A DNA stretch of 64,000 nt. Source: Dehalococcoidia bacterium (lineage in GTDB: Bacteria; Chloroflexota; Dehalococcoidia; Lucifugimonadales; UBA3495). Below the pieces are notes generated by a model. The model had not been told where the DNA came from. It saw only the letters and a program-made list of their open reading frames with translations, and made no database searches. The stretch spans positions 1,041,603 through 1,105,602 of the forward strand of contig OZ244879.1 of NCBI GenBank assembly GCA_965221295.1, given 5' to 3'. A program made the position numbers and the translations under genes. Of the stretch, positions 3,871 through 58,215 are shown one piece after another (position 1 is the first letter of the stretch; every line of letters begins with the position of its first letter).

Positions 3871-3899
3871 ATTATAGCGGCTTGCTCCCACGCTGTCAT
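3871..3899 (-). promoter_or_regulatory. putative sigma70-type promoter for the acyl-CoA dehydrogenase pair
   Basis: Minus strand reads ATGACA-(17 nt)-TATAAT (plus-strand tgtcat 3894-3899, attata 3871-3876), about 50 nt upstream of the ATG at 3820. The -35 hexamer is the AATGACAG core of a solitary inverted repeat fragment. Confidence 0.55.
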
Positions 3900-4499
3900 T
3901 TCGCGGCTGGCATCGCTGGAGAGGGCGGGGTGGCTGAGGGTGGTGGCGGGCGGCCGTTGGTTGTGGTCGTCGAGATTGCCACGGCCTTCGGCCTCGCAAT
4001 GACAGTTGGGGAGTGGGCCTCGCGATGACAGGTGAAGAGTGGGCCTCGCGATGACAGGTGAAGAGTGGGCCTCGCAATGGCGGTTGGGGAGGGGCTGCGC
4101 AGTGACAGGAGAGGGCGGGGTGGCTGAGGGTGGTGGCCGGCGGCCGTTGGTTGTGGTCGTCGAGATTGCCGCGGCCTTCGGCCTCGCAATGACAGGTGGG
4201 GGGACGGGCGGCCGTTGGTGGTGGCGGGCGGCCGTTGGTTGTGGTCGCCGAGATTGCCACGGCCTTCGGCCTCGCAATGACAGGTGGGGGGCGCCTCGCG
4301 ATGACAGGTGGGGAGTGGGCCTCGCGATGGCGGTTGGGGAGTGGGCTTCGCAATGACAGGTGGGGGGCGCCTCGCGATGACAGGTGGGGAGTGGGCCTCG
4401 CGATGGCGGTTGGGGAGTGGGCTTCGCAATGACAGGTGGGGAGTGGGCTTCGCAGTGACAGGTGGGGGTGGGCGGTGGGTTCGGGTGGCGGTTGGTTGG
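3890..4499 (+). repeat. intergenic hairpin-repeat array 1 (three type-A hairpins plus ~26-nt G-rich submodules)
   Basis: GAGATTGCCRCGGCCTTCGGCCTCGCAATGACAG starts at 3972, 4162 and 4250. GAGTGGGCCTCGCGATGACAGGTGAA-type 26-nt units lie in tandem (starts 4011, 4037, 4063; again 4290-4460). The array fills the gap between the amidase stop (4500) and the ACAD promoter. Confidence 0.95.
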
Positions 4500-5933
4500 T
4501 TAGAGGGGTGGGGGCAGGCGTTGGCGCCATGGGGTGGCTTGCTCGTAGGCGTAGGCGGCGCGCAGGACGTTGGCTTCGCCGAGGTGCGACCCGGCGATTT
4601 GCAGGGCCAGCGGCAAACCGCCCTCGCCTTCGTCGGTAAAACCGCACGGGACGCTGAGCGCCGGACAACCGCTGAGGCTGTACAGTCCGCGGAAGCTGCC
4701 CTCCCGCAGCGCGGCGGCGGCCATCTCCTTGCTGTCGATCACGGTGGGCTCGTCGGCGAGGAGACCGGCCGGGCTGGTTGAGGTGGGTTGCAGCAGCAGG
4801 TCCACCCCGCGGAACGCCTCAATGACCTGGCGGCGGACCAGGGCGCGCAACTTCAACGCCTTGTAATAGACCTGCCCTGGAATCAGGTTGCCCACCGCGA
4901 ACGCGACCCTGGTATTAGGGTGATAGTCTTCGAAGCGTTCCCGCAGCCACTCGGGGTTGAGGCTCACCCGCTCGGTACTGGTGATGGCGCGGACGATGGC
5001 GCCGGTGGAAGGCGCCATGGGCAGGCTGACAGGCGTTATTTCGGCGCCCAACTCGCGGAACACTTCGATGGCGGCCCGCGTGGCATCGCGGCTGCGGTCG
5101 TCCAAGCGGAGGCCGTGTCCTCCCATCAGTTCTTGCACCACGCCGATACGCATTCCGGCGACGCCGGCGTCGATGCCGTCCAGGTAATCTGGCACGGGCT
5201 CGCGGCGGCTGTAACGGTCTTTGGGATCATGGCCGGCGATGACGCCCAAAGTGAGGGCGCAGTCGGCGACGGTGCGGGAGATGGGGCCGATGGTGTCGGT
5301 GGACCAGCTGGCGCCGTCCACGCCGGCTCGGCTCACCCGGCCCCAGGTGGGTCGGATCCCCACCAGCCCGGAATTGGCGGCGGGTCCGCGAATCGAACCG
5401 CCGGTATCCTCGCCCAGGGAGGTGGCGCAGAGGAACCCGGCGGTGGCTGACCCGCTACCCGTGCTGGAGGTTCCGGGGTTGCGGGCAGTGTCCCACGGAT
5501 TTCGCGCCGGGCCGAACCAACTGCTGACGGGATCGCCCAGGGCGAATTCGCTCATGTTGGTCTTGCCGATGATGACTGCGCCGGCGTGTTTCAGTTTGGC
5601 AACCACGGTTGCATCCTGATGGGGCACGAAGTCGGCGCGAATCTTGGAGGCGTCGGTGGTGCGGACGCCGGCGGTGTGGATCTGGTCCTTGACGCCAACT
5701 GGAACGCCGTGCAAGGGGCCGCGGAAATTGCCGGCGAGGGCCTCGGCCTCCAATTGTTTCGCGTCGGCGCGGGCTTGGTCAGCGCAGACGGTGATGTAGG
5801 CGTTGAGCTTGTGGCCCACCGCGTCGATGCGTTGCAGGTAGGCGTCCACCGCTTCGACCGGGGATACTTGGCGTGAACGGATAGCGGCGGCCAGCTCTGA
5901 GGCGGACAGGAAGGGGATGTCTGCGGGAATCAT
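4500..5933 (-). CDS. amidase-signature family hydrolase (GatA/AtzE-like)
   Basis: 477 aa. PVGVKDQIHTAG, then the Gly/Ser-rich signature GTSSTGSGSATAGF...GEDTGGSIRGPAANSGLVGIRPTWGRVS. Its ATG overlaps the stop of the upstream small ORF (ATGA at 5930-5933). Confidence 0.85.
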   Translation of the reverse strand: MIPADIPFLSASELAAAIRSRQVSPVEAVDAYLQRIDAVGHKLNAYITVCADQARADAKQLEAEALAGNFRGPLHGVPVGVKDQIHTAGVRTTDASKIRADFVPHQDATVVAKLKHAGAVIIGKTNMSEFALGDPVSSWFGPARNPWDTARNPGTSSTGSGSATAGFLCATSLGEDTGGSIRGPAANSGLVGIRPTWGRVSRAGVDGASWSTDTIGPISRTVADCALTLGVIAGHDPKDRYSRREPVPDYLDGIDAGVAGMRIGVVQELMGGHGLRLDDRSRDATRAAIEVFRELGAEITPVSLPMAPSTGAIVRAITSTERVSLNPEWLRERFEDYHPNTRVAFAVGNLIPGQVYYKALKLRALVRRQVIEAFRGVDLLLQPTSTSPAGLLADEPTVIDSKEMAAAALREGSFRGLYSLSGCPALSVPCGFTDEGEGGLPLALQIAGSHLGEANVLRAAYAYEQATPWRQRLPPPL

Positions 5934-6127
5934 TCTGCCACCTCCAGGTCGGCTGGCTGTACCACGGCGACGTATTCTTCCAAACTGAAGCCCGGTGGAT
6001 CGATGGCCGCGATCTCTTCCAGCATGGCGTTGAGGCTGTGGGCTACCTGGGTCAATTCCGGTTCTGAAAGCGTCAATCCCACCGCTTTGGCCAGGGCCTG
6101 GATTTCGTCGTTGTTCAAATCTGCCAT
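5930..6127 (-). CDS. small GatC/AtzG-like putative amidase partner (hypothetical)
   Basis: 66 aa from ATG 6127 (GAGGT about 8 nt upstream; the ORF track extends to 6190): MADLNNDEIQALAKAVGLTLSEPELTQVAHSLNAMLEEIAAI... Its size and 4-nt overlap with the amidase resemble GatC/AtzG-type partners. Confidence 0.6.
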   Translation of the reverse strand: MADLNNDEIQALAKAVGLTLSEPELTQVAHSLNAMLEEIAAIDPPGFSLEEYVAVVQPADLEVAE

Positions 6128-6249
6128 GGGTTTACCTCGATGTTGCAGTTGATGCTTGGGCATTGTCTCGCGAGCGGTCGTTTTCCGCAATGCGCGGTTG
6201 CGAAGTGGAGTAGGCGATTAGGCGGGCGGCGGTTCAGTGGCGGCTCCGG

Positions 6250-7278
6250 GAGGACGTTCGCCCAGGCGTGGAGATTGCCACGGCCTTCGGCCTCGCAATG
6301 ACAGGTGGGGGTATGGATGGCCTCGCGATGGCGGTTGGGGAGGTGGCGCGTGGCCGTTGGTTGTGGTCGTCGAGATTGCCACGGCCTACGGCCTCGCAAT
6401 GACAGTTGGGGGTATGGCCTCGCGATGGCGGTTGGGGCAGGGGGCGCGTGGCCGTTGGTTGTGGTCGTCGAGATTGCCACGGCCTACGGCCTCGCAATGA
6501 CAGGTGGGGGTACGGCCTCGCAATAGCGGTTGGGGCAGGGGGCGCGTGGCCGTTGGTTGTGGTCGTCGAGATTGCCACGGCCTTCGGCCTCGCAATGACA
6601 GTTGGGGGTATGGCCTTGCAATAGCGGTTGGGGAGGTGGCGCGTGGCCGTTGGTTGTGGTCGTCGAGATTGCCACGGCCTTCGGCCTCGCAATGACAGTT
6701 GGGGGTATGGCCTCGCGATGGCGGTTGGGGAGATGGCGCGTGGCCGTTGGTTGTGGTCGTCGAGATTGCCACGGCCTTCGGCCTCGCAATGACAGTTGGG
6801 GGTATGGCCTTGCAATAGCGGTTGGGGAGGTGGCGCGTGGCCGTTGGTTGTGGTCGTCGAGATTGCCACGGCCTTCGGCCTCGCAATGACAGGTGGGGGT
6901 ATGGCCTCGCGATGGCGGTTGGGGAGGTGGCGCGTGGCCGTTGGTTGCGGTCGTCGAGATTGCCACGGCCTTCGGCCTCGCAATGACAGGTGGGGGTATG
7001 GCCTTGCGATGACAGTTGGGGAGATCGCCTCGCGATGGCGGTTGGGGAGGTGGCGCGTGGCCGTTGGTTGCGGTCGTCGAGATTGCCACGGCCTTCGGCC
7101 TCGCAATGACAGGTGGGGGTATGGCCTCGCGATGGCGGTTGGGGAGGTGGCGCGTGGCCGTTGGTTGTGGTCGTCGAGATTGCCACGGCCTTCGGCCTCG
7201 CAATGACAGGTGGGGGTATGGCCTCGCGATGGCGGTTGGGGCAGGGGGCGCCGCGATGATGGTTGGGTGGCGGGCGCA
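6250..7278 (+). repeat. intergenic hairpin-repeat array 2: ten tandem copies of a ~97-98 bp unit
   Basis: Type-A hairpin starts at 6271, 6372, 6470, 6568, 6665, 6762, 6859, 6956, 7079 and 7176 (spacing 97-101 bp, one of 123 bp). Unit = TGTGGTCGTCGAGATTGCCACGGCCTNCGGCCTCGCAATGACAGKTGGGGGTATGGCCTCGCGATGGCGGTTGGGGNGGNGGCGCGTGGCCGTTGGT. The array ends 1-2 nt before the pmbA stop. Confidence 0.95.
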
Positions 7279-7279
7279 T

Positions 7280-8614
7280 CTAAATGGTTTGGCCGGTGAA
7301 GCGCCAGTTGGTCAGCTTAGCCGCCGGGGCGTGAATGGCTACGCCGGCCTCGTTTAGGTTGAGCTGAGGGGAGTTGGACAAGGCTTCGCAGCCGGCCAGC
7401 GCCTCCACGTAACTCTGGGTGAAACGCAGGTTCTTCACGGGAGTGGTCAGTTCGCCGTTTTCGATCAGGAACGTTCCGTCGCGGGTCATGCCGGTCATGA
7501 CGCAACCGCGATTGTGCGCCAAACGGGTGTAGTAGAACCGAGTAATGTAGATGCCGCGGCGCACCGAGGCGATCAGTTGCTCGGTGGTCAAGTCGCCAGG
7601 GCTCAGGAACAGGTTGGTTGCGGTGGGCCCGCCGGTGGCGCCGCGCTGGTGTCCGGTGGAAACCGCGCCGACTTTGGCGGCGGTATAGCTGTTGTGGACC
7701 GGCCCCAGCGCCACGCCGTCTTTGACGATATCCACTCTACTTCTGGGGACGCCCTCGGCGTCGAAGGGCGCCGGCCAGCCGCCGGGGTCCAGGCCGTCGT
7801 CGCGGATGTTCACGGATGGATTCATGGCGGCCTGCCCTTGAACGTCGCGCATCCAACTGCGGCCGTCCTGAACCATGTGGGCGCCCATGCCGTAGAAACT
7901 GAGGGCCTCCAGAAGGTCATGCACGGCGTAGCGCTCCAGCACCACGGGATATTCGCCTAGGTCAAAAGGTTGAGGATTTTGTCCGCGGGCAGCCTTGTCG
8001 ATGGCCTCGTCGGCCAGGGCTTCGGGGTCGATGGCGTCCATGCGCCACCCGCCGCCTTTGGACCAGCCCGCCGAATCTTGGGCGCGGGCGGTGATGAGCA
8101 GGCCGGCGAGGGAGCCGACGTGATAGGCGTCGGCTCCCCGGGTGCTGACCACGGCAACTTCGATGGCGCCGGTGCGATAGAATCCGGCCGCGTCCATGGA
8201 GCGGACGGCGGCTTTACCGCACACCATGCCGACCACGGCGGCCCGCCGGTGGGCGTCGCAGGAAGCCGTCGCGGAGTCGTACGCCGCCACGGACGGAGCC
8301 GGCGATGGTTCGACCAGGCCCGGGAAATCGGGGTCTTCCGGCATCAGCCTGGCGAATTCGGCGGCCTGTTGCATCGCATCGGCCAGACCCTCGGAGGACA
8401 GGTTGTTGGTGACGGCCCGTCCCTGCCGCAGGCCAGTGGCCACCCTGATGTGGGCCACGGCGTCCTGATGGGCCACGTTCTGGTGGATGCGATTGTTGGC
8501 GAAACGTGTCAGCGCCTGATCCGTAACCGACAGATAGATGTCGGCGTCGGAGCCCGGCGGGCAATGGCGGAGGGCTTCAAGCAGCCGCGGGCGGATTTGC
8601 TCCTGGCCCAGCAT
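7280..8614 (-). CDS. pmbA: TldD/PmbA-family metallopeptidase, PmbA-like subunit
   Basis: ORF track gives 7280..8737. I prefer ATG 8614 (MLGQEQIRPRLLEAL...), 6 nt after the tldD stop, because the longer form overlaps tldD. TldD/PmbA-like C-terminal segments (GMTRDGTFLIENGEL, KNLRFTQS). Confidence 0.8.
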   Translation of the reverse strand: MLGQEQIRPRLLEALRHCPPGSDADIYLSVTDQALTRFANNRIHQNVAHQDAVAHIRVATGLRQGRAVTNNLSSEGLADAMQQAAEFARLMPEDPDFPGLVEPSPAPSVAAYDSATASCDAHRRAAVVGMVCGKAAVRSMDAAGFYRTGAIEVAVVSTRGADAYHVGSLAGLLITARAQDSAGWSKGGGWRMDAIDPEALADEAIDKAARGQNPQPFDLGEYPVVLERYAVHDLLEALSFYGMGAHMVQDGRSWMRDVQGQAAMNPSVNIRDDGLDPGGWPAPFDAEGVPRSRVDIVKDGVALGPVHNSYTAAKVGAVSTGHQRGATGGPTATNLFLSPGDLTTEQLIASVRRGIYITRFYYTRLAHNRGCVMTGMTRDGTFLIENGELTTPVKNLRFTQSYVEALAGCEALSNSPQLNLNEAGVAIHAPAAKLTNWRFTGQTI

Positions 8615-8619
8615 GGCGT

Positions 8620-10092: not shown

Positions 10093-10214
10093 GGGTGGGT
10101 GATTGGACTAGGAAAGTCAGGCGTACGGAACGGGAGCCGGGCTCACGGTGGTGGCGGCTCCGGGATTGCGGAGGCCAGCTTTGCGCGGTTAGCGCTGGGC
10201 TAGACCGGGCTGGG

Positions 10215-10775
10215 CTAGACCGGTAGGAAGGGCTCGTCGGACGGTGGGGGCAACTGTTCGAAGGCGTTGATGTTGAACGCCAGGACTGAGTAGTAGCCCA
10301 TCAGGTTGGTCAGCTCGACCAGGCCGCGTCGGCCGAACTGGGCGAGGGCGGCGTCGAAGGTGGCCTGGGATACACGGCGGGTGCGGAAGAACTCGCGGCC
10401 GTAGTTGATGACGGCGGATTCGGCGGCTGATATGGGTGGCAGGTCTTGCCGGTCGCGCAGGTTATCCACCAGGGCGTCGCTGAGACCGGCGCGGCGACCG
10501 GCGGCGGCGTGGGCGTGCCAGATGAACTGGCAGTCGAGCTCGCGAGCGGTGGTCAGCATCGCCAATTCCTGGATATTGTCGGGAAGGGACGACCCGTCGG
10601 CGCGAAGATAGGCGCGCAGGATTTCGCCACGCTGGGCGATTTCGGGCACGTGAAGTTGGACGGCAACCGGCCCCATTTCGGGGACGACGTTGTTGCGGGA
10701 TGACATGATGGCATCGAAGGCGGCTACCTGCTCCTGTGGTACGGAGTCTCTACTGGCGGTTGGCAAGCGGGGCAT
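10215..10775 (-). CDS. carboxymuconolactone decarboxylase (AhpD-like) family protein
   Basis: 186 aa. ELAMLTTARELDCQFIWHAHAAAGRRAGLSDALV is typical of the CMD family. Confidence 0.8.
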   Translation of the reverse strand: MPRLPTASRDSVPQEQVAAFDAIMSSRNNVVPEMGPVAVQLHVPEIAQRGEILRAYLRADGSSLPDNIQELAMLTTARELDCQFIWHAHAAAGRRAGLSDALVDNLRDRQDLPPISAAESAVINYGREFFRTRRVSQATFDAALAQFGRRGLVELTNLMGYYSVLAFNINAFEQLPPPSDEPFLPV

Positions 10776-10840
10776 GTCGCGTTCTCCTGAGGTGGTGGTT
10801 CAAGGGCCGGGCCAGACCGAAGCGTAGGTTCGCCGGGCCG

Positions 10841-11851: not shown

Positions 11852-11887
11852 GAACTCACCTGAAAATGAACTCACTTGACAAAGGAC

Positions 11888-12841: not shown

Positions 12842-12856
12842 ATTGGGGTTCCTCTT

Positions 12857-19284: not shown

Positions 19285-20212
19285 ATCGGGATTGCCGCGT
19301 CGCTGTCGCCGCTCGCGGTGGCAGTTGGGGGCGTCTCGTGGTGACAAAAGGGGCGCGGGCGGCCGTTGGTTGTGGTCGACGAGATTGCCACGGCCTTCGG
19401 CCTCGCAATGACAGTCGAGGGGTCGCCTCGCAATGACCGTTGGGGGCGCCTGGCAATGACCGTTGGGGGCGCCTGGCAATGACCGTTGGGGGGCGCACGG
19501 CGGCGCCGGGAGGGGGCTGGCGTTGGGGCAGTGGTAGGCGCGGCGATGGATGTAGGTGGTGGCGCGTGGCGGTTGGTAGTGGTCGACGAGATTGCCACGG
19601 CCTTCGGCCTCGCAATGACAGTTGGGGGGCGCCTCGCAATGACCGTTGGGGGCGCCTGGCAATGACAGTTGGGGGGCGCACGGCGGCGCCGGGAGGGGGC
19701 TGGCGTTGGGGTAGCGTTAGGCGCGGCGATGGATGTAGGTGGTGGCGCGTGGCGGTTGGTAGTGGTCGACGAGATTGCCACGGCCTCCGGCCTCGCAATG
19801 ACAGTTGGGGAGGGGCCTCGCGGTGACAGTTCGGAGGGGCCTCGCGGTGACAGTTCGGAGGGGCCTCGCGGTGACAGTTCGGAGGGGCCTCGCGGTGACA
19901 GTTCGGAGGGGCCTCGCGGTGACAGTTCGGCAGGGCCTCGCGGTGACAGTTCGGAGGGGCCTCGCGGTGACAGTTCGGAGGGGCCTCGCGGTGACAGTTC
20001 GGAGGGGCCTCGCGGTGACAGTTCGGAGGGGCCTCGCGGTGACAGTTCGGAGGGGCCTCGCGGTGACAGTTCGGAGGGGCCTCGCGGTGACAGTTCGGAG
20101 GGGCCTCGCGGTGACAGTTCGGCAGGGCCTCGCGGTGACAGTTCGGCAGGGCCTCGCGGTGACAGTTCGGCAGGGCCTCGCAATGGCGGTTGGGGGCGCC
20201 TGGCAATGACAG
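19285..20212 (+). repeat. intergenic hairpin-repeat array 3 (type C and type A hairpins, a 183-bp duplication and a 24-bp microarray)
   Basis: Type-C-like GGGATTGCCGCGTCGCTGTCGCCGCTCGCGGTGGCAG at 19289. Type-A hairpins at 19381, 19588 and 19771 (the last two 183 bp apart inside a duplicated block). The array fills the convergent gap between the NHL gene stop (19268) and the CMD stop (20222). Confidence 0.95.
19812..20185 (+). repeat. 24-bp tandem repeat, about 15.5 near-identical copies
   Basis: Unit GGGGCCTCGCGGTGACAGTTCGGA. Two unit types (..TTCGGAGGGGCC.. and ..TTCGGCAGGGCC..) occur in the order 5,1,7,3. The unit is an amplified form of the 3'-arm submodule of the hairpin family. Confidence 0.95.
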
Positions 20213-33319: not shown

Positions 33320-33528
33320 GGGATGGCGGCCGTTCGTTGCGTCGGACGGGATTGCCGCGCTGCGCTCGCAATGACAGAAAAAAGGCTCGCAATGACAGGA
33401 CGTTGAAATGACGGAACGTGGTGGCGGCGTCGGCCCATTGGCTGGGGGCCGTTCGTTGTGTGGGCCGAGATTGCCGCGCTTCGCTCGCAATGACAGGACG
33501 TTGGGGGGCCTCGCGATGAAATGTCACA
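33320..33528 (+). repeat. intergenic hairpin-repeat array 4 (two type-B hairpins)
   Basis: GGGATTGCCGCGCTGCGCTCGCAATGACAG at 33348 and GAGATTGCCGCGCTTCGCTCGCAATGACAG at 33467 (119 bp apart), each followed by GGCTCGCAATGACAGG / GGCCTCGCGATGAAATG submodules. Confidence 0.9.
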
Positions 33529-40261: not shown

Positions 40262-40745
40262 GGAACGGAAGCGGCGGCGGGATTGCCGCGCTTCGCTCGC
40301 AATGACAGAAAAAAAGAGGCTCGCAATGACAGGGACAAACAGGTTCGCAATGACAGAGATGATGGGGCTCGGAATGAGAGAGATCATTGGGCTCGCGCTG
40401 CGGTTCGGGTTTGCAGTCGGGCGGCCGTTGGTCGCGCTCGACGGGATTGCCGCGCTTCGCTCGCAATGACAGGGCCAAAACGGATCTCAATGAGAGAGAC
40501 GATTGGGATCGCGCTGCGGTTCGGGCTTGCAGTCGGGCGGCCGTTGGTTGCGCTCGACGGGATTGCCGCGCTTCGCTCGCAATGACAGAAAAAAAATGAA
40601 GCTCGCAATGACAGAAAACATGAAGCTCGCAATGACAGAAAAAAGAGGCTCGCAATGACAGGGACAAACAGGTTCGCAATGACAGAGTATCAGAGATCGC
40701 AATGATAGAGGATTAGAGATCGCAATGACAGAGATAATGAGGATG
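40262..40745 (+). repeat. intergenic hairpin-repeat array 5 (three type-B hairpins plus purine-rich TCGCAATGACAG submodules)
   Basis: GGGATTGCCGCGCTTCGCTCGCAATGACAG at 40279, 40443 and 40559. Eight or more (G)CTCGCAATGACAG(A/G) submodules lie about 24-26 nt apart, especially at 40590-40740. Confidence 0.95.
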
Positions 40746-42729: not shown

Positions 42730-43250
42730 GTGGGGCCGTTGGTTGTGGTCGGCGGGATTGCCGCGCTGCGCTCGCAATGACAGTCAAAGGGTGGTGACGC
42801 CTCTCCCAATTGTCATTGCGAGGAGCGACAGCGACGCGGGAATCCCGATGCCTAGGCGAGTGTGCGTGAGGCCATTGGTTGTGGTCGACGGGATTGCCAC
42901 GGCCTTCGGCCTCGCAATGACAGGGGCAGGGAGGCGCTGGCAATGACGGCAACTGTCATTGCGAGGAGCGACAGCGACGCGGGAATCCCGATGTCTGGGC
43001 GAATGGGCGTTAGTTGCGGTCGTCGAGATTGCCACGGCCTTCGGCCTCGCAATGACAGGGGCAGGGAGGCGCTGGCAATGACGGCAACTGTCATTGCGAG
43101 GAGCGACAGCGACGCGGGAATCCCGATGTCTGGGCGAATGGGCGTTAGTTGCGGTCGTCGAGATTGCCGCGGCCTTCGGCCTCGCAATGACAGGGGCAGG
43201 GAGGCGCTGGCAATGACGGGAAAGGGGCGGGGGCGCGATGACAGGCGCGG
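42730..43250. repeat. intergenic hairpin-repeat array 6 (135-bp composite unit: inverted type C plus forward type A)
   Basis: Type B at 42754. Inverted type C (CTGTCATTGCGAGGAGCGACAGCGACGCGGGAATCCC) at 42811, 42953 and 43088. Type A at 42890, 43025 and 43160 (135-bp period). Confidence 0.95.
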
Positions 43251-43268: not shown

Positions 43269-43357
43269 GTCACCACTGGACGTACATGGGCATGACTCCG
43301 AGAACTGAAGAATCATGCCCCGTACGACAGTCACCACTGGACGTACATGGGCATGAC
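43269..43357. repeat. perfect 28-nt direct repeat duplicating the 3' end of dnaN
   Basis: GTCACCACTGGACGTACATGGGCATGAC at 43269-43296 and 43330-43357. The second copy holds the dnaN stop and last 8 codons. An 8-bp inverted repeat GGGCATGA/TCATGCCC (43288-43295 / 43313-43320) lies between them. Confidence 0.9.
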
Positions 43358-44497
43358 CACGTGGACGTAACGGTCGGAGTCGGCGGGTCGAAAAACGCCG
43401 GGGCTGGATGAATTGGTCACTTCCAGGGCCACCTTGCCGCGACCGAGCACGTTCACGACGTCGATGAGGTACCGTGCGTTGAAGGCGATTTTGGCGTCCT
43501 CGCCCTCCAACTGGTCGATGTCCAGTTCGTCCGAATTGTCGCCGACCTCCTCAGAGCGGGCGGATACCTTCAGTTGGCCGCCTTCGCCAGACTCTTGGGG
43601 CGTCATTTCCAGACGAACGATGTTGCTGCCATCGCGGGCGAACACCGCGGCCGACTGGGTGGCGCGCTTGAGATCGTCCAGTTCCATAACGGCGCGAGTC
43701 TCGTACCGCTCTGGGATCAGCTGGTCGTAGTTGGGGAAGGTTCCCTGGAGCAGTTGGGATACCACTTCCACGTGCTCCAGTTTGAACATGACCTGCCCCT
43801 TTTCGGGGGACAAGGTGACCTGAACCGGAGCGCTCTGCTCGGAAGCCAGGCGCTGTATCTCCTGCATGGTGCGTGCCGGCACGATCACCTTGAGCGCGTC
43901 GGCGACGGGTTCGGAGAGCTGGCCGGTGTAAACGGCCAGGCGGAAACCGTCGGCGGCGGCCATAACCACGTTGGATTCTTCCAGCTTGAGTTCGACGCCG
44001 GTGAGCACCGGGCGGGATTCGTCGGACGCTGCGGAAAAGGCGACCAAGCCGATGCCCTGGCGCAGCATTGAAGGGTCGATATTAGTGGCAACGCCCGATT
44101 CGACCTCGGGGATTGGCGGGAAATCGTCTGCGGAGGCGCCGTTGATGTGGGTGCGGGAGCGACCGCACGAGATGTGCAAGACGCTGGCGCCGCCGCTGCT
44201 GCTGGACTCTTCGGCGTCTGGGCCACGGAGATCGAGATCGATGCGGTCGGCGGGTAGGGAGTTCACCAAATCGGCCACGAGCCGGTGGGGCACGGTGATG
44301 GCCCCCTCTTCCTCGATCATGGCGCCGATCCAGGTGGTGATGGCGATCTCCAGGTTGGTTGCCGACAGCCGCAGCATTCCCTGGTGGCTGCTCAGCAATA
44401 CATTCTGGGTTATCGGCAGGGTGGAGCGTGTGGCCACCGCGCGACCCACGACACCCAGGCCGCGAGCCAGATTTTCCTGAAGGCAAGACAGTTTCAT
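43331..44497 (-). CDS. dnaN: DNA polymerase III beta subunit (sliding clamp)
   Basis: ATG 44497 gives MKLSCLQENLARGLGVVGRAVATRSTLPITQNVLL, a typical clamp N-terminus (track start 44548). 388 aa with three-domain length. Confidence 0.9.
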   Translation of the reverse strand: MKLSCLQENLARGLGVVGRAVATRSTLPITQNVLLSSHQGMLRLSATNLEIAITTWIGAMIEEEGAITVPHRLVADLVNSLPADRIDLDLRGPDAEESSSSGGASVLHISCGRSRTHINGASADDFPPIPEVESGVATNIDPSMLRQGIGLVAFSAASDESRPVLTGVELKLEESNVVMAAADGFRLAVYTGQLSEPVADALKVIVPARTMQEIQRLASEQSAPVQVTLSPEKGQVMFKLEHVEVVSQLLQGTFPNYDQLIPERYETRAVMELDDLKRATQSAAVFARDGSNIVRLEMTPQESGEGGQLKVSARSEEVGDNSDELDIDQLEGEDAKIAFNARYLIDVVNVLGRGKVALEVTNSSSPGVFRPADSDRYVHVVMPMYVQW

Positions 44498-44859
44498 TTT
44501 TGACGATCCCGGCGCAATTTGACCCAATTTGCGTGTTCTGCGCGCCAAGTTAGTCGGCCCGAATAGCGGGCCATCGCCGGCGGTGCGGAGCGGTGCGACG
44601 CTTCGACGAACGCCGGAACCGATACTACGGCCTATGAACCGCCGCCCCCTGCCGATGGTGACAAAGTATGAACGCGAGAACCTGTGTAAGTGGCAGGGAT
44701 TATAGCACGGGCCGGGATTGCCGGCGCGGGCCCGCGGCGACGCGCCCCCGGGATGGCCCGTGGCGTGGGAGCGCGCCGCCGGGGAACGTTAAGCGCGGAT
44801 CAGGGAATGCCGCGCGGTGGCTGGCGAGATGGCGCGTGCGCGGAAAGCGCCTGTGAATC

Positions 44860-45335
44860 GCGGCCCGTCGTTCGGCCAGGCGTCGGGATTGCCACGGCCT
44901 GCGACCTCGCAATGACAGTTGGAAGGGGGGTTCGCGATGGCGGTGGGGGAAGGGGGCCTAGCTGCTGCTCTGGATCGTCGTTCGCCCAGGCGTCGAGATT
45001 GCCGCGGCCTGCGGCCTCGCAATGACAGTTGGCGGGGGTTTCGCGATGACAGTGGGGGAGGGGGCCTCGCCGTGGCAGAGGGAAGTGGTTTCGCGATGGC
45101 GAAGGGAGAGGGCACAGCTGCTGCTCTGGATCGTCGTTCGCCCAGGCGTCGAGATTGCCGCGGCCTGCGGCCTCGCAATGACAGTTGGAGGGGGTTTCGC
45201 CGTGGCAGAGGGAGGGGGCACAGCAACGGGTCCGGCCCGTCGTTCGCCCAGGCGTCGGGATTGCCACGGCCTGCGGCCTCGCAATGACAGTGGGGGGGGC
45301 TTCGAAATGGCGGTGGGGGAGGGGGCACGATGGTG
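44860..45335 (+). repeat. intergenic hairpin-repeat array 7 (four type-A hairpins with TGC loops)
   Basis: G(G/A)GATTGCC(A/G)CGGCCTGCG(G/A)CCTCGCAATGACAG at 44885, 44995, 45151 and 45257 (spacing 110, 156, 106 bp). Each is preceded by CGTCGTTCG(G/C)CCAGGCGTC and followed by G-rich GGTTTCGCGATGGCGG-type submodules. Confidence 0.95.
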
Positions 45336-45531
45336 TTGGTGGTCGGCGCCTGGGTGTGTGAGAAGCAGAACGCCGCTGGGAATTGCAGATGGCGGTCCTG
45401 TCGGATGCGCCGGTGTACGACTTGGTGGCGACCCTCTGCGCTACGAGCGGACGGGAATTCACCGGGCAATATGTAGGAGAATCTGGCGTTGCTGGGGCGG
45501 TTTCAAATTTATGGGTGATTATGGCGTTACT

Positions 45532-45725
45532 GGCGCGGTTTCAACCGTTCAACCACTCGCGCTAACCGGATGCGTGATGACCGCAGGGACAGATGGGGCG
45601 GTTTCAACCGTTCAACGTCTCACGCTAACTGGATGCGTGATGACCGCGGGGACAGATGGGGCGGTTTCAACCGTTCAACCACCCACGCTAACCGGATGCG
45701 TGATGACCGCAGGGACAGATGGGGT
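45532..45725 (+). repeat. 63-bp tandem repeat x3 (plus a partial copy near 45494) upstream of alaX
   Basis: Unit GCGGTTTCAACCGTTCAACNNCNCACGCTAACYGGATGCGTGATGACCGCRGGGACAGATGGG. Copies are in register at 45536, 45599 and 45662. Unrelated to the hairpin family. Confidence 0.9.
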
Positions 45726-45752
45726 AACAGATGGTGTAGCGGAGGCGACGGT

Positions 45753-45808: not shown

Positions 45809-46537
45809 ATGACGGAATTGCTGTTTTTGAACGATGCGTACCTGTCGACGTTCGACGCGGTGGTAGCTGGCGTCGCGGACGATGGCGGAGTGGAGTTGGA
45901 CCGAACGGCATTTTACATCGGCGGCGGCGGCCAACCGTGCGACATCGGAGCGCTGCGGGATGAGGCCAGCGGCGCCGAGTACGCGGTAACCAAAGTGGGC
46001 CGGGCCGGGCAATCGATTCTGCATACCATCGAGGGCGACGCGAAACCGAAGCCTGGAACGGCGTTGCGTGGAGAAATCGACTGGCAGCGGCGCTACCTGC
46101 TGATGCGTACTCATACGGCGTTGCACATCCTGTGCGGTGTGGTGTGGCGCGACTATGGCGCCCTGGTTACCGGCGGGGACATGCGACCGGGCGCGGCGCG
46201 GATGGACTTCGAGCTGGAGAACATGTCCACGGAGTTCGCTGAAGAGGTGGAAGCTCGCATCAACGAGGAGGTGGCGCAGGGTCGGGAGATCGGAGTCGGG
46301 TTCATGAACCGTCAGGAAGCCGACGCTCACCCTGACTTGATACGCACCAAGATCAACCTGCTGCCGGCGTCCATCGCGGAGGTGCGCACCATCGACATAT
46401 CTGGGCTTGACCTGCAGGCGGATGGCGGCACGCACGTGCGCAACACCAGCGAGGTGGGCCGCATCAACGTGGTGGGCCATGAGAGCAAGGGCCGGATCAA
46501 CAAGCGCTTGCGCATCGCCCTGGCCGATGCGGCCTGA
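45809..46537 (+). CDS. alaX: alanyl-tRNA editing protein (AlaX-type, AlaRS second additional domain)
   Basis: 242 aa. MRTHTALHILCGVV (HxxxH) and GGTHVRNTSEVG. Confidence 0.8.
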   Translation: MTELLFLNDAYLSTFDAVVAGVADDGGVELDRTAFYIGGGGQPCDIGALRDEASGAEYAVTKVGRAGQSILHTIEGDAKPKPGTALRGEIDWQRRYLLMRTHTALHILCGVVWRDYGALVTGGDMRPGAARMDFELENMSTEFAEEVEARINEEVAQGREIGVGFMNRQEADAHPDLIRTKINLLPASIAEVRTIDISGLDLQADGGTHVRNTSEVGRINVVGHESKGRINKRLRIALADAA

Positions 46538-46550
46538 CCGGAAAACGGGC

Positions 46551-49926: not shown

Positions 49927-50256
49927 GGGTAGCGATGAAGGCGGTTGAAAAGTGACTGCCGCCGCGGAGCTGGCGGAAGTGGGGAAGGCTTCCTCTGGAA
50001 GGCGAGCGCCGATTGCCCAGTGGCTGGATCAGCCGGCGGTTAGACGGAAGGGTCGCCGCCGTCGGATGCAACCAGGGCGCCCAGGGATAACTGCCCGGAA
50101 CTCCAGGCAACTGGCAGGCGGATCGCCTGTTGGAGTTGGGGCAATGCCTCTCACACCGGTTTGTGTCGATCGCCGGGGCGGGTGTGCTCCGCAGACGCGG
50201 CCACTTGCTGGGTCTGCGGCTCCCACTGGAACGCGCGGGTCTTGGTTTCGCGGCGC

Positions 50257-51483: not shown

Positions 51484-51490
51484 CGGCGCC

Positions 51491-52810: not shown

Positions 52811-53059
52811 CCCGCCATCTAGAATGCCTGCGACAGAGGCGGAGGGTACAGACCGGGCAACTTGGCGCTGGCGCACACCCGCCCCAAGATTGACGGCGCC
52901 ATCCAACCGCACGCTATGAAATCAGATAATGCCAACGTTCCCGCCGTCGAGTTCGCCAGCAGAGGCAATTTTCGACGCAAGGGGGCAGCCCCTATGATGC
53001 ATGTTGGGTAGATTTTTAGTATAATCACAACATCCTGTGGCCCGCTTTGTTAGATTATC

Positions 53060-53737
53060 TTGCCCACCATCGCCGTATTGGCCGCCCAGCGCAATGGCCG
53101 ACACCCCGACCCAGGGATCCGCGCGGTTGAGGCGGCCGGAGGAAACGCGCGCGCCGCGACCGCATCGTCGGGCGCGGGGTTTTTTGCCGAGGCCGGGGGA
53201 CTGCTGATTTCGGACGCTGGCCTGGGAGCTGACGGCGCAGACGCCGGCGCGCTGGCGCTGCTGGAGGCGGCCCTGGAGATGGACCTGCCCACGTTGTTGA
53301 CCGGCCGCGGAATGCATCTGCTCAATGTCTGCTTCGGTGGAGATCCGCCATCGGCCAACTCAGCGAGAGTTGGCGACGGTGGGTGTGCCGCCGACGTTGC
53401 GGTCAATGCCGGCGGCAAGCCGCCGCGGCGTCAGATCTACCTTTCGCCCGGGTCCAAGATGGCGGCCATCATCGGCGGCGCGGGCATGTTCCGTATGGAT
53501 AGCGAGGCTTGGGCCTGCCGCAGGGCGCTCAAGGAGGCGCAAAGGGCGGAACGGTTGATGTCCATAGCCTATCAGTTGGACGACGGCGTGATCGAAGGTC
53601 TGGAAAGCAAAGAACATAGTTGGGTTATCGGAGTGCAATTTTTGCCGGAACTCTCTGAGCGCGTTCCGGCCAGCTTTAACAGCCTGTTTCTGGGGCTGGT
53701 TGAAAGGGCGGACGAATTTTGCCGCCACAGGAGATAA
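53060..53737 (+). CDS. class-I glutamine amidotransferase (peptidase C26)-like protein lacking the catalytic Cys and His
   Basis: 225 aa, TTG start, no clear RBS. LPTLLTGRGMHLLNVCFGG aligns by eye to PvLGICRGmQlLNValGG, with Gly in place of the nucleophile Cys. VIGVQFLPE aligns to lGVQWHPE, with Leu in place of His. Confidence 0.55.
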   Translation: MPTIAVLAAQRNGRHPDPGIRAVEAAGGNARAATASSGAGFFAEAGGLLISDAGLGADGADAGALALLEAALEMDLPTLLTGRGMHLLNVCFGGDPPSANSARVGDGGCAADVAVNAGGKPPRRQIYLSPGSKMAAIIGGAGMFRMDSEAWACRRALKEAQRAERLMSIAYQLDDGVIEGLESKEHSWVIGVQFLPELSERVPASFNSLFLGLVERADEFCRHRR

Positions 53738-53743
53738 CGGAAC

Positions 53744-56470
53744 ATGACCACAGCCCCTCCACCGCAAACCGGCGGCGACTTCAGCCCGCGTCCGATTCAG
53801 GACGAAATGCGGGAGTCCTACCTTTCCTACGCGATGTCGGTGATCGTTTCCCGGGCGCTGCCCGACGTTCGGGATGGATTGAAACCGGTGCAGCGGCGCA
53901 TTCTCTACGCCATGCACGACATGGGGATTCGTCCGGGCAGCCAGTACCGGAAGAGCGCGCGCATTGTGGGCGAGGTGTTGGGCAAGTTCCATCCCCATGG
54001 CGATGGGTCGGTGTACGACGCGCTGGTGCGCATGGCGCAACCCTTCACCATGCGGGCGCCGCTGATTGACGGCCAGGGCAACTTCGGCAGCATTGACGGG
54101 GATCCGCCGGCGGCGATGCGATATACGGAGGCGCGCCTCACCGCCATCGCCGATGAGATGCTGGCCGACATCGACCAGCAGACGGTGGACTTCGCCGACA
54201 ACTTCGATGACTCGATCAGGGAACCGCAGGTGCTGCCGTCGAGGATGCCGAACCTGCTGGTGAACGGGTCTTCAGGCATTGCCGTTGGCATGGCCACCAA
54301 CATGCCGCCGCACAACCTGGCGGAAATTTGCGACGCAGTTTGTTACGTGATTGACCACCCGAATTGCGACGTTGACCAATTGATGGAAATCGTGCCCGGC
54401 CCGGACTTCCCGACGGCCGGTCGCATCCGTGGGGTTTCCGGCATTCGCGACATGTACGCCACCGGACGGGGGCGGGTGGTGATGGAGTCCGTCACCGAAA
54501 TCGAGGAAATGCGCAACAATCGGCAGCGCATCGTGGTGAGCGAACTGCCGTTCCAGGTGAACAAGGCGAACCTGGTGGAAAAGATCGCGGGGCTGGTGCG
54601 TGACAAAACGTTGGTGGGCATCAGCGACATACGCGATGAATCCGACCGGCGAGGCATCCGCGTGGTGATCGAGCTGTCGCGGAACGCCCAGGCCACCGTC
54701 ATCCTCAACAACTTGTTCAAGAGAACCGCCTTGCGTCAGTCATTCAACGCCATCATGCTGGCGCTGGTGGATGGACAACCGCAGGAGTTGTCGCTGAAGG
54801 ACCTGATCCGCAACTTCATCCTGCACCGGGAAGAGGTGATTCGACGGCGGACCGAGTATCAGCTGGGCCGAGCGCGGGACCGGGCCCACATTGTGGAGGG
54901 TCTGCTCAAGGCGCTGGACGCCATCGACGCCATCATTGAAACGATTCGCAACAGCCAGGACGTAGAGGCGGCGCGGAACAACTTAGTGCAGGACTTCGAC
55001 CTCACCGAGATACAGGCGCAGGCCATCTTGGACATGCAACTGCGACGGTTGGCGGCGTTGGAGCGTCAGCGGTTGGACGAGGAATACAACGATCTGCTGG
55101 CGACCATCGCCGAGCTGGAAGACCTGCTGGGGAACCCGCAGAAGATCCGCAACGAAATCAAACGGGAGACCCGAGAAGCCAAGCGCAAGCACTCCAACCC
55201 TCGGCGGACGGTGATCCTTGCTGAAGAGCTGCAAGAGCAGTCCATCGAGCAGTTCATCGTGCAGGAGGACGTGGTAGTCACGTTGAGCCAGCGTGGTTAC
55301 ATCAAGCGGGTGCCTATCAACACATATCGCAACCAGCGCCGCGGCGGCAAGGGCGTGCGGGGCGCCAACAACCGCGAAGATGACGCGGTGATGCAGATCG
55401 CGGTGGTCAATACCCACGACCAACTGCTCTTCTTCACCAATAAGGGACGGGTTTACCCGCTCAACGTCTATGAGACGCCGAACGATGCCGGGCGCACAGC
55501 TCGGGGGACACTGCTGGTGAACCTGATTCCGCTGCAACCCAACGAGCAGGTGCAAACGATGCTGCCAGCCAGCAGGGACGAATACAGTCACCTGTACGTC
55601 TTCGCCACGCGCAACGGTCGGGTGAACGCCCTGCGCCCTGGCCAACTGCAGAACTTGAGAAAATCTGGCCTGATTGCCATGAAGATCCAGGACGGCGACG
55701 AGTTGATCGCCGTTCGACCAGTGGCGGGCGACGCGTCCATCGTGCTGGTGACTGAGCAAGGGCAGGCGTTGTTGTGTCCGGTCAACAGCATACCGGAGCG
55801 CAACCGGAATGCCTCTGGCGTGATTGGCATGAGATTCAAGGACGAATACGGCGGCCGAGACCGGGTTGTGGCGATGGACGTGGTGAACAATGCAGAGGAC
55901 GAGTTTCTGCTGGTGGTTAGCGAAAAGGGCTATGGCAAAGCGACTCCCCTGTACAACAGCAAGGGAGAGGCCGTGTATCGCGAAACCAACCGGGGCGGTA
56001 TGGGCGTCAAGACGTTTGCCGTGGACCAGGGCGACAAACCCACCGGCCCGGTGGTGGACGCCAAGGTGGTTAACTCGGCCGAAATGAACGAGGAGGAGGG
56101 CCACGAAGTCTTCATCATCTCGGCGCAAGGCCAGGTGGTCAGGATAAATTTGGCCGAGGTCAAGGTGGTCAACACGCGCCAGACCAAGGGCGTGATCATA
56201 TGGCGTGAACGGGGCGGCGACGACAGCGTGGTGTCCATCTACTGCTTCCGCGCCAACGACTACAGCCAGGATGATCCCACCCGCCAGAATGGCGCGGCGC
56301 CCGCCGGTTCAGCTCTGGCTGAGGCCGAGGTTGTGGCGGCGGTGGCCGACAGTCAGTACGAGGACGAAGAATCTGAAGCAGACCAGGCAGAAATGCCGGA
56401 TGACGCTGACGATGATGGGGACGACGAACAACCCGACGCGCCGTTGAACGGCCAGGGATCACTGCTGTAG
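53744..56470 (+). CDS. gyrA: DNA gyrase subunit A
   Basis: 908 aa. [32 protein letters not shown], active-site [10 protein letters not shown], six-bladed C-terminal domain, acidic tail. Confidence 0.95.
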
Positions 56471-56552
56471 CGCCGCCTCTGAAGTCTGGGGCGGATCAGA
56501 TTTCTGCCCCCGGCGCAGACCAGCCCGAAATGCGGGCGCAGGACGACGACCG

Positions 56553-57233
56553 ATGAAACTACTGATGGTGCACGGTTCGGGCCAGAACGAACTGACCTAC
56601 CACTACCAGACGGCGGCCTTTGCGGAAGCCGACGCGGTGAATTTGCCGGGGCATCCCGATGGCGAACCGAGAGACAGCATCGGCGGGTACGTAGACTGGC
56701 TCCGCGAATACGCGACTGGCAGGGGGTATCCGCCCTTCGTGTTGTTCGGACACTCGATGGGCGGGGCGATCGCCCTGGACTATGCGCTGCGATTTCCCGG
56801 GGATCTGGCCGGATTGGTTTTGATCGGGACCGGAGCGCGGCTGCGGGTGCACCCCTACTATCTGAACCGATGCCTGGACGAATCCCAGTGGAGGGCAGAG
56901 GCTCCGGGATATTACGAGGCAATCAATCGAGAGATGGCGCCCCAACTGACCGCTAGGGCGTTACAGTCTGGGCCGATGGTGGAGCACAACGACCTGTCGT
57001 GTTGCGACAAATTCGACGTCATGGATCGGGTCAAGGAAATCGGCGTCCCGAGCCTGGTGGTGGTCGGCGCCGACGACGTGATGACTCCGGTGCGTTACGC
57101 GGAATACCTGGGCCGGGAATTGCCGGACGCCGAAGTGGTGGTTGTACCCAATTCCGGCCATTTCGTAACGCTCGAGCAGCCGGATCAGGTCAACGCGGCG
57201 GTGGCGCGGTTTTTGGAACGGCTGGGCAGGTGA
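56553..57233 (+). CDS. alpha/beta-fold hydrolase
   Basis: 226 aa. MKLLMVHGSG, nucleophile elbow GHSMGG, C-terminal GHF. Confidence 0.8.
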   Translation: MKLLMVHGSGQNELTYHYQTAAFAEADAVNLPGHPDGEPRDSIGGYVDWLREYATGRGYPPFVLFGHSMGGAIALDYALRFPGDLAGLVLIGTGARLRVHPYYLNRCLDESQWRAEAPGYYEAINREMAPQLTARALQSGPMVEHNDLSCCDKFDVMDRVKEIGVPSLVVVGADDVMTPVRYAEYLGRELPDAEVVVVPNSGHFVTLEQPDQVNAAVARFLERLGR

Positions 57234-57359
57234 CCGGGCGGGCGTCCGGTCTGGGCGATGAGTCGTTTCGAGATGCGGTTTCGCCTCCGTGATCGCGAGA
57301 AGCAACGGGGAGCGGGCAACACCGCGTCGATGCGAACGCCCGGCAAAGGAGCGGAGCCA

Positions 57360-58215
57360 AGGGTCGTTAGTTGTGGTCAACGAGATTGCCGCGCTACGCT
57401 CGCAATGACAGGAAGAGGGGGCTCGCAATGGCAGTGAGGGGGCGCAGCGATGGCTGGGTGAGGGCAAATGGTCGTTAGTTGCGGTCAACGGGATTGCCGC
57501 GCTGCGCTCGCAATGACAGGAAGAGGGCCAGGAGAGAGGAAGGGCCTACGCAGCGCCTCCCTCGACTGTCATTGCGAGGCCGGAGGCCGTGGCAATCTCG
57601 ACGCCTGGGCGAACGGCCGCTGGGCGGCGATGCCGAACGGCAGTCCGCTGCGAACAACGGGATTGCCGCGCTACGCTCGCAATGACAGGAAGAGGGCCAG
57701 GACACAGGCAGGGCCTACGCAGCGCCTCCCTCGACTGTCATTGCGAGGCCGGAGGCCGTGGCAATCTCGACGCTTGGGCGAACGGCCGCTGGGCGGCGAT
57801 GCCGAACGGCCGTCCGCTGCGAACAACGGGATTGCCGCGCTACGCTCGCAATGACAGGGAGAGGGCCAGGACACAGGAAGGGCCTACGCAGCGCCTCCCT
57901 CGACTGTCATTGCGAGGCCGGAGGCCGTGGCAATCTCGACGCCTGGGCGAACGGCCGCTGGGCGGCGATGCCGAACGGCAGTCCGCTGTGATCAACGAGA
58001 TTGCCGCGCTTCGCTCGCAATGACAGTAGAGAGGAGCTCGCAATGGTAGTAAGAGGGCGGTCGCAATGACAGTAGAGAGGGGCTCGCAATGGTAGTAAGA
58101 GGGCGGTCGCAATGACAGTAGAGAGGGGCTCGCAATGGTAGTAAGCGGGCGCTGGGGATGGCAGGGTGGGGACGGTCGCAATGACTGGAATGAGCGCCGG
58201 CGATGGTAGGGTGAA
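57360..58215. repeat. intergenic hairpin-repeat array 8 (169-bp composite unit: forward type B plus inverted type A; 52-nt tail units)
   Basis: Type B at 57382, 57490, 57659, 57828 and 57997. Inverted type A (CTGTCATTGCGAGGCCGGAGGCCGTGGCAATCTCGAC) at 57566, 57735 and 57904 (169-bp period). 58020-58160 holds about 2.7 copies of a 52-nt double submodule. Confidence 0.95.

Follow-up and report, generated by a model that had tools for sequence, protein, structure and literature searches.

A tagged hairpin repeat that fills eight intergenic regions of a Dehalococcoidia genome and its likely place among the CGTC-type REP sequences

We describe a tagged hairpin repeat that fills eight intergenic regions in a 64-kb stretch of DNA from a Dehalococcoidia bacterium (assembly GCA_965221295.1, contig OZ244879.1, positions 1,041,603 to 1,105,602 of the forward strand). 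The whole stretch is referred to here as the window, and the regions are numbered R1 to R8 along it. One hairpin family runs through all eight, which add up to 5,113 bp, or 7.99% of the window. The element is probably a non-coding repeat of the repetitive extragenic palindromic (REP) or bacterial interspersed mosaic element (BIME) type, and one family of the superfamily of REPs that carry a CGTC or TGTC tag; taken as a whole, this is the explanation that fits best. We file the ATTGCGAG hairpin as a previously uncatalogued family within this known superfamily. The eight regions and their modular make-up had been picked out in an earlier, sequence-only reading of this DNA, and our inventory of 41 hairpins across 8.0% of the window bears that out. 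The same reading could not assign the element to a named family. It can now be placed, by the defining architecture of the CGTC/TGTC-tagged REPs (PMC3733652) and by bridging and canonical members in related loci.

The hairpin and its place among known repeats

On the bottom strand the unit reads 5'-C TGTC, then ATTGC GAG, a variable palindrome, CGYG GCAAT and finally CYC, in short C-TGTC/ATTGCGAG...GCAAT/CYC. Its foot combines a 5-bp stem, beginning A,T, with an unpaired YGTC tag, a 3-nt tail and an internal loop that is asymmetric. Above the 5-bp foot and a fixed 3x2 internal loop stands an apical stem of 2-8 bp with a loop of 3-8 nt. The ATTGC/GCAAT arms are found in every window copy. A regular-expression inventory recovered 41 full hairpins, of which 39 have the GACAG tag, or CTGTC when read on the opposite strand. 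The 41 lie on the + strand in 35 cases and on the - strand in 6, and fall into three versions: A (26 copies), B (11) and C (4). A 5' module of 20-24 nt precedes nearly all of them, in one of two versions (GGCCGTTGGTTGTGGTCGTC or CGTCGTTCGCCCAGGCGTC). Examples of each part are as follows.

3972..4005, + strand: hairpin A, GAG ATTGC CAC GGCC TTC GGCC TC GCAAT GACAG, with the parts in the order tail, 5-bp foot, 3x2 internal loop, apical stem-loop, foot, tag
40443..40472, + strand: hairpin B, GGGATTGCCGCGCTTCGCTCGCAATGACAG, with a short apical stem
42953..42989, - strand: hairpin C, GGGATTCCCGCGTCGCTGTCGCTCCTCGCAATGACAG, whose 5' arm has ATTCC like the canonical CGTC REPs
6348..6371, + strand: 5' module, GCGTGGCCGTTGGTTGTGGTCGTC

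Three hairpin versions and a submodule that reiterates the 3' arm had been proposed from the sequence, and all are real: about 65 solo units of 3' arm and tag lie inside the arrays, every one on the + strand. The inventory found no full hairpin outside the eight regions of the window. A core 12-mer, TCGCAATGACAG, occurs 51 times in the window (46 on the + strand, 5 on the -), against 0.00 expected from 100 shuffles. A covariance model built from foreign sequences only finds 40 hairpins in the eight regions at E <= 5.6e-5 and none elsewhere in the window.

The superfamily of CGTC-tagged REPs was defined by Di Nocera, De Gregorio & Rocco in 2013 (PMC3733652), and includes the Neisseria repeat dRS3 (CGTC-1) and the Rickettsia repeats RPE-4 and RPE-6. 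Its members can have the tag 'changed to TGTC' (CCTC is also seen), with A/T at stem positions 1-2 and a 3-nt tail of consensus CCA (PMC3733652). They form inverted dimers and occur in frame within genes, often repair genes such as uvrA and DNA ligase, and have no associated transposase (PMC3733652). The window family is alike on several of these points. It has an unpaired YGTC tag at one end and a stem that starts A,T; it occurs in distant phyla, as the superfamily does, and in frame within genes, including UvrA and DNA ligase; it has no linked transposase; and canonical members are present in related genomes. For the foreign copies the search pattern itself imposed the A,T stem start, which is also seen in the bridging and canonical forms. 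On two points the likeness is partial: a conserved 3-nt tail is present at the other end, but reads CYC in the window family and CCA in the superfamily, and inverted dimers occur, though they do not predominate in the window.

Two sets of loci connect the window family to the canonical repeats. The closest relatives of the source genome carry canonical CGTC REPs of the form CGTC ATTCCCGC GAAA GCGGGAAT CCAG (locus L246 at 22018 and 22245, locus L247 at 15594, all on the - strand). A metagenome-assembled genome (MAG) from the Eubacteriales (locus L160, 132-1276) carries the form TGTC ATTGCGGGC TACG ACCCGCAAT CCAC with a perfect stem, which by its sequence appears to bridge the canonical CGTC REPs and the window family.

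At the level of the family itself, we found no earlier description. The stem string ATTGCG and the peptides typical of the family are absent from PMC3733652 and its supplements, and the REP table of Quentin et al. 2018 does not list the family. Full-text searches of the published literature with DNA strings and spurious peptides gave unrelated primer papers or nothing. Rfam gave 0 matches over the window at gathering thresholds, and a permissive scan (E <= 10) of R6 gave only chance miRNA matches with E of 4-9. The sequence-only reading would have yielded to a match with a catalogued family; the match that emerged is with the superfamily only, and the ATTGCGAG family is in neither Rfam nor the REP literature searched.

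The better known REPs and BIMEs of Escherichia coli and the REPINs (REP doublets forming hairpins) of Pseudomonas are GTAG-tagged and associated with RAYTs (REP-associated tyrosine transposases). The window family resembles them in being made of high-copy, extragenic, imperfect palindromes of 20-40 nt with a 5' tetranucleotide, and in its alternating-orientation mosaics, inverted doublets that form long hairpins, strain-specific expansions and tandem reiteration. It differs in its foot, where the two strands bear YGTC and GRG rather than GT[AG]G, and in that no RAYT was found nearby. Its foot is also found in many phyla, while a REP is usually confined to one species (PMC6006769). The Rickettsia palindromic elements (RPE), which are selfish and lie in frame within genes, offer another likeness, as members of the ATTGCGAG family elsewhere sit in frame in intact genes and add 10-25 residues in loops. 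The window copies differ in being all intergenic, and the sequence family and host range are distinct.

Recombination or immune arrays of a known type, either integron attC sites (as clusters of attC sites lacking integron-integrases, CALIN) or a degenerate array of clustered regularly interspaced short palindromic repeats (CRISPR), are the least probable reading of all. Functionally there is an analogy with attC, in that a folded single strand, a conserved basal stem, unpaired bases, a variable terminal structure and uniform orientation within arrays recur here, and a repeat length of 28-37 nt is CRISPR-like. The attC core is AAC/GTT, whereas the arms here are ATTGC/GCAAT. There are no open reading frame (ORF) cassettes between units and no intI gene in the window, and the family is not a member of the attC class. 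We also reject a CRISPR array, as the spacers recur along with the units and the window has no cas genes.

Arrays in the window and their expansion

The eight arrays and their settings are these.

R1, 3890..4499, + strand: 3 full A hairpins (3972-4005, 4162-4195, 4250-4283) and 11 solo units of 3' arm and tag with a 26-nt period; flanked by two - strand genes, with the array ending at 4499 and the amidase stop codon at 4500 (1 nt)
R2, 6250..7278, + strand: 10 A hairpins in about 10 tandem 97-nt units (7.7 copies with 94% matches by Tandem Repeats Finder, TRF), each unit in the order 5' module, hairpin, spacer, one solo 3' arm; between tandem - strand genes, with the array ending at 7278 and the stop of a TldD-like gene at 7280 (1-2 nt)
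R3, 19285..20212, + strand: one degenerate C-like and 3 A hairpins in 183-nt units, then a minisatellite of 3' arm and tag (19789-20181, 24-nt period, 16.3 copies, 97% matches); between convergent genes, starting 17 nt past one stop and ending 9 nt short of another
R4, 33320..33528, + strand: 2 B hairpins (33348-33377, 33467-33496) and one solo unit; between divergent genes
R5, 40262..40745, + strand: 3 B hairpins (116-nt unit) and 8 solo units of 3' arm and tag with an A-rich 24-nt period; downstream of a gene for a ring-hydroxylating dioxygenase beta subunit, between convergent genes
R6, 42730..43250, mixed strands: one B hairpin (+), then three 135-nt composites, each an inverted doublet of C (-) and A (+); downstream of dnaN, between convergent genes
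R7, 44860..45335, + strand: 4 A hairpins, each unit about 106 nt long, with the 5' module in its second version (..CGTCGTTCGCCCAGGCGTC); upstream of dnaN, in a gap of 1.26 kb
R8, 57360..58215, mixed strands: 5 B hairpins (+) and 3 A hairpins (-), arranged in 169-nt units whose inverted doublets have their tags facing inward, followed by three copies of a 46-nt repeat of the solo 3' arm; downstream of gyrA, with + strand genes on either side

A ninth array lies outside the window, 4-5 kb left of its edge (locus L328, 10397-10984). It holds 5 hairpins on the same strand, between a major facilitator superfamily (MFS) transporter gene and an AhpC-like gene. To the right of the window there are no hairpins in the adjoining 6.5 kb.

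The larger units fold well. The 5' module repeats half of the hairpin core in inverted, degenerate form, and G.T wobbles let the two pair on the top strand only; the 97-nt unit of R2 reaches -23.1 kcal/mol (z -3.4) when the top strand folds and -16.4 kcal/mol (z -1.9) when the bottom strand does. The inverted doublets of R6 and R8 each form one long hairpin (135-nt unit, -29.8 kcal/mol, z -3.2; 169-nt unit, -35.2 kcal/mol, z -4.6). Without exception, the 24-26-nt sub-units run from the 3' half of the nearby apical stem through the tag and about 10 nt beyond. They resemble the version of the hairpin that they adjoin, GGCCTCGCAAT in A arrays and GCTCGCAAT in B arrays, and because of this match they are read as local duplications.

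Tandem Repeats Finder reports periods of 24, 26, 46, 76, 88, 97, 106, 116, 135, 169 and 183, with matches of 74-97%. Among the unit lengths given earlier, 24, 26, 135, 169 and 183 are recovered in this way, while 52 is not reported, though it equals twice 26. The earlier picture of shuffled parts holds for the modules, but what looked like shuffling is for the most part hierarchical tandem duplication of a few local units, with a degenerate inverted half-copy (the 5' module) and inverted doublets.

Relatives on chromosomes of 3-4.5 Mb have a GyrA 93% and an amidase 88% identical to the window proteins. They have 83-195 bp at the position of R8 (L247, L246) and about 44 bp at the position of R2 (L329, L330). 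The covariance model finds 2 hairpins in 72 kb of relatives, against 40 in the 64-kb window, and single relatives have 0-1 hairpin per 13-23 kb. The load of the window is thus some 20-fold above that of its closest relatives. Because R2 and R8 are absent and hairpins are sparse in relatives of 88-93% identity, the arrays appear to be recent and mostly tandem expansions; the tandem units taken as evidence of recent expansion have 91-97% matches by TRF. The density is far above ordinary REP/BIME loads, as the sequence-only reading had held, and the window itself is an extreme, yet ordinary-in-kind, REP/BIME-like expansion. One relative (L246, 21469-21530) has a single B-type hairpin followed by a two-copy duplication of 3' arm and tag (TCGCAATGACATA...), which shows that reiteration of the 3' half is not peculiar to the window genome.

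The arrays are not assembly artefacts, as R1 and R8 are reproduced by a second assembly. Here an 83-kb contig, with a 100%-identical amidase, and a 27-kb contig match the window at 99.94% and 99.84%, and R1 (L328) and R8 (L428) are identical in length to the window. One of these contigs ends just before R2, and the independent support for length covers R1 and R8. This bears on a simpler account, in which slippage of low-complexity, G-rich sequence gave rise to plain minisatellites or to assembly artefacts, with no mobile element involved. Most copies are indeed tandem, with high unit identity and hierarchical periods, and the break at R2 is of the kind that such an account would lead one to expect. 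However, the same hairpin is found at nine separate loci of the source genome, a model built on foreign sequences finds 40 window copies, the foot occurs in about 15 phyla (among the matches listed) and in phages, and R1 and R8 have identical lengths in another assembly. The account is already largely refuted, and we regard it as very improbable.

Other organisms, mobility and mobilisation

The pattern GATTGC-N6-30-CTCGCAATGACAG retrieved at least 120 matches in each of two collections, the IMG/VR viral contigs and a set of contigs from one genome per species. Among the matches listed, the viral contigs range in GC content from 0.33 to 0.71, and the genome contigs belong, by their record titles, to about 15 phylum-level groups: Pseudomonadota, Desulfobacterota, Chloroflexota, Bacillota, Cyanobacteriota, Bacteroidota, Patescibacteria, Nitrospirota, Planctomycetota, Ignavibacteriota, Spirochaetota, Gemmatimonadota, Verrucomicrobiota, Elusimicrobiota and Moduliflexus. 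Unannotated copies lie on plasmids of cultured isolates of Methylosinus, Methylocystis, Calothrix, Aulosira and Halomonas, and phage carriers were identified that have portal, terminase and capsid genes. Methylosinus trichosporium OB3b and Hymenobacter are among the cultured carriers.

Positions that the pattern left free are conserved too. YWCG follows GATTGC, and CG follows GATTGCNN in 94-96%; on the top strand, R occupies position -1 in 96% of copies and G occupies position -2 in 55-64%. In a scan with the tag unspecified, ...CTCGCAAT is followed by G (73%), A (76%), C (75%) and then a purine, which corresponds to a YGTC tag on the other strand, in both its CGTC and TGTC forms. The inner part is hypervariable, with 221 distinct sequences that are mostly perfect small palindromes. 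In the unselected 17-nt class, the apical helix has changes on both sides in 5 of 6 pairs; cells with double changes number 43, against 17.6 +/- 2.7 after shuffling (0 of 500 shuffles reach 43), and 90.9% of cells are paired, against 30-48% with slid partners. The stems contain 577 Watson-Crick pairs and 16 wobble-type pairs (5 G.T, 11 A.C). No asymmetry of wobble pairs was found that would tell which strand folds. Such near-pure Watson-Crick stems fit a constraint at the level of DNA better than one at the level of RNA. Foreign loci have 91 inverted pairs and 55 head-to-tail pairs.

Selection on transcripts, in place of spread as DNA, is an alternative. The hairpins might act as RNA, be it as 3'-UTR (untranslated region) stabilisers, attenuators, terminators or an unclassified structured RNA. 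The arrays do occupy the intergenic space 3' of genes and abut gene ends, the apical helix covaries, and E. coli REPs are known to affect RNA 3' ends (PMC3733652). We nevertheless consider a role as RNA unlikely, since orientation is independent of transcription: R1 and R2 are antisense and R8 is sense, and in the genome loci hairpins lie at random with respect to genes, 40 on the coding strand and 45 opposed. Moreover, G.U-type pairs are nearly absent from the stems (16/593), genic copies are in frame in both orientations, the arrays are missing in close relatives, and Rfam has no match. Intrinsic terminators in particular are rejected, there being no terminator-like site or T-tract inside R5-R8; the hairpins are followed by GACAG and purine-rich spacers.

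Comparisons among phages point to mobility. A clean hairpin insertion of about 46 nt lies between the ribosome-binding site and the start codon in locus L091, and three related phages lack it. L098 and L030 have an SPP1-type portal gene with an in-frame inverted doublet that L060 and L067 lack; the alignment reads ...LYGN-EIATPSARNDSPFVSLRGAAHRSNL-VKVTELW in the former pair and ...LYGV-AITKKAAT-ITELW in L060, and the 505-aa ORF is intact. A miniature inverted-repeat transposable element of DDE type was considered and is not favoured; no target-site duplication is visible at the L091 and L098 insertions, where the empty sites are only about 80% identical.

In-frame copies in intact genes are found more widely. 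Examples are UvrA (L154, 1761-4490, an inverted doublet), an ATP-dependent DNA ligase (L166, 1184-3091), a PD-(D/E)XK protein, a terminase large subunit (L071, 3531-5333) and L146 (1656-4484). Portal genes with such copies are L098, L030, L039 and L057, with three portals having different inserts in the same loop. The inserts, in repair and phage-packaging genes, add 10-40 residues and occur in both orientations. The UvrA and ligase copies echo the published bias of CGTC REPs towards repair genes.

A bolder proposal is that the YGTC-tagged ATTGCGAG hairpin is an active, non-autonomous element that travels horizontally, its invariant foot being recognised by a widespread enzyme that is not a RAYT. 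We put this forward tentatively, as possible though on balance doubtful. The best-fitting explanation given at the outset asks for less. In it a trans-acting factor, unlinked to the repeats and not of the RAYT type tested, would recognise the foot on single-stranded or extruded DNA and seed new hairpin sites. Mainly local tandem duplication, by slippage or unequal exchange, would then inflate the load some 20-fold in the source lineage, acting on several registers: the whole unit, the inverted doublet, or the 3' half of the hairpin with its tag and a spacer of about 10 nt. The apical stem-loop is free to vary provided that pairing is kept. Effects on the host would probably be REP/BIME-like, with hairpins at gene ends influencing the stability of RNA 3' ends, supercoiling or recombination, or there may be none, as for selfish DNA. 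We infer both the mobilising activity and any host function.

Orientation is of interest in this regard. In 9/9 arrays of the source genome, the strand with the tag at its 3' end is the + strand, which is G-rich in every 2-kb bin. The + strand would be leading-strand sequence (the lagging-strand template); we infer the direction of replication, because the window contains no cluster of DnaA boxes (by a search for oriC) and no change in the sign of the skew. There is no dnaA gene beside dnaN. Viral contigs show the same association with the G-rich strand (82 v 17, coding DNA only). A replication-linked, single-strand mechanism is possible.

Strand bias and doublets also suit a more familiar mechanism, namely REPINs that a RAYT, or a Y1 (HUH) transposase of IS200/IS605 type, encoded elsewhere in the genome, mobilises via single-stranded DNA at the replication fork. 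The layout of tag and imperfect hairpin is REP-like, the inverted doublets fold as long hairpins (R6, R8, L098, L154), and the bias of the arrays and viruses resembles that of IS200/IS605 elements, which show strand bias. We judge this mechanism as improbable as a role in RNA. The tag is YGTC rather than GT[AG]G, and phmmer and hmmsearch found no Y1/HUH transposase (Y1_Tnp) in the 1.8 million residues of six-frame translation from the window and 245 hairpin loci. The query was a COG1943-type consensus, validated as PF01797, whose relatives are named RayT by JGI. Conversely, 0 hairpins were found in 271 kb around 80 metagenome loci (L248-L327) of the commonest environmental RayT-type protein. 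Single-copy loci, too, are without strand bias. A RAYT link is therefore rejected for the COG1943-type subfamily tested, and the suggestion of a RAYT or Y1 partner in the sequence-only reading finds no support. The absence of a linked transposase agrees with the literature on CGTC repeats, in which CGTC REPs never flank tyrosine transposase genes (PMC3733652). As a side observation, COG1943-type RayT Y1 genes are very common in metagenomes, often on contigs of 1-3 kb.

Other neighbours gave no candidate. No Pfam family occurs more than 3 times among the ORFs flanking 150 genomic hairpins, which are unrelated housekeeping genes. The recurrent neighbours in viral contigs, by BLAST clustering, are only the structural genes of repeatedly sampled phages.

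Several points weigh against the reading of the element as a family of CGTC/TGTC-tagged REPs. The four published CGTC families have one contiguous stem of 8-9 bp with a loop of 4-5 nt (PMC3733652), whereas in the window family a 3x2 internal loop separates the 5-bp foot from an apical stem of 2-8 bp; the authors of that work noted that their own search possibly missed bulged members. Clusters and head-to-tail pairs of CGTC repeats are rare or negligible, and inverted dimers predominate (PMC3733652), while the window is dominated by head-to-tail arrays and minisatellites of the 3' arm, with inverted doublets in R6 and R8 only. A lone hairpin is weak as single-stranded DNA, at -5 to -6 kcal/mol with z about -1. 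The retrieval pattern fixed the foot, and its conservation rests on the free positions and the sheer number of matches. The test for Y1 adjacency covered one subfamily. The strand bias seen in arrays and viruses is absent in single-copy genome loci, where neither GC skew nor coding strand gives a significant bias (47 v 38 on the G-rich strand). Finally, a search for filled and empty pairs at >93% identity, from which the target site and junctions could be read, found none.

The question of the mobiliser is of wider importance. For CGTC-type REPs such as dRS3 and the RPEs, no mobilising enzyme has become known since their definition in 2013. With a burst in one genome, low copy numbers in its relatives and fresh insertions in phages, the question becomes tractable by comparison. 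If the element does prove to be active and travelling, its enzyme could also explain the CGTC repeats of the dRS3 and RPE type, and the 20-fold burst and the phage insertions would offer a route to it.

Neighbouring genes and annotation

The roughly 50 predicted genes of the window are, by Pfam, an ordinary metabolic and housekeeping set. Represented in it are luciferase-like monooxygenases, acyl-CoA dehydrogenases, an amidase, TldD/PmbA, ABC transporters, dnaN, gyrA and tRNA synthetases. No transposase, integrase or cas gene was found among the predicted genes, in agreement with the sequence-only reading, whose statement that arrays end near stop codons also holds (R1, R2 and R3, at the distances given above). 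The neighbouring genes are tandem on the - strand for R1 and R2, tandem on the + strand for R8, convergent for R3, R5 and R6, and divergent for R4; several of the arrays abut stop codons.

Another use of these results is for the annotation of genomes. The arrays overlap some 38 ORFs with lengths of 100 aa or more, for which Pfam gives no credible match, only sub-threshold noise. That pipelines might call such spurious ORFs had been foreseen, and calls of this kind are seen inside R1 in the public annotation of the second assembly (L328, 1672-4811, equivalent to about 1390-4530 of the window, reversed), with ORFs of 221 and 63 aa. The same annotation over-extends the acyl-CoA dehydrogenase to 575 aa, against 400 aa in the window. 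This is a direct case of array-caused mis-annotation. Recurrent spurious peptides of the family are ...EIASLRSQ*, ...DCFASLAMT... and ...VIASEAKQS.... A widespread family that lacks an Rfam model leads to spurious peptides and over-extended genes in public annotations, and to broken assemblies; a model of the family would improve the annotation of MAGs and phage contigs.

Two further repeats lie in the window. A 63-nt tandem repeat (45531-45724, 3.1 copies, 91% matches) is found beside R7, in the 1.26-kb gap that separates dnaN (43331-44548, - strand) from an AlaX-like gene (45809-46537, + strand); the end of its unit, ..GATGACCGCAGGGACAGATGGGG, faintly resembles the tag region. A 42-nt repeat (62319-62646, 7.8 copies) lies within an ORF at 62099-63187 (362 aa, no Pfam match), where it encodes a 14-residue protein repeat, and it is kept in the second assembly.

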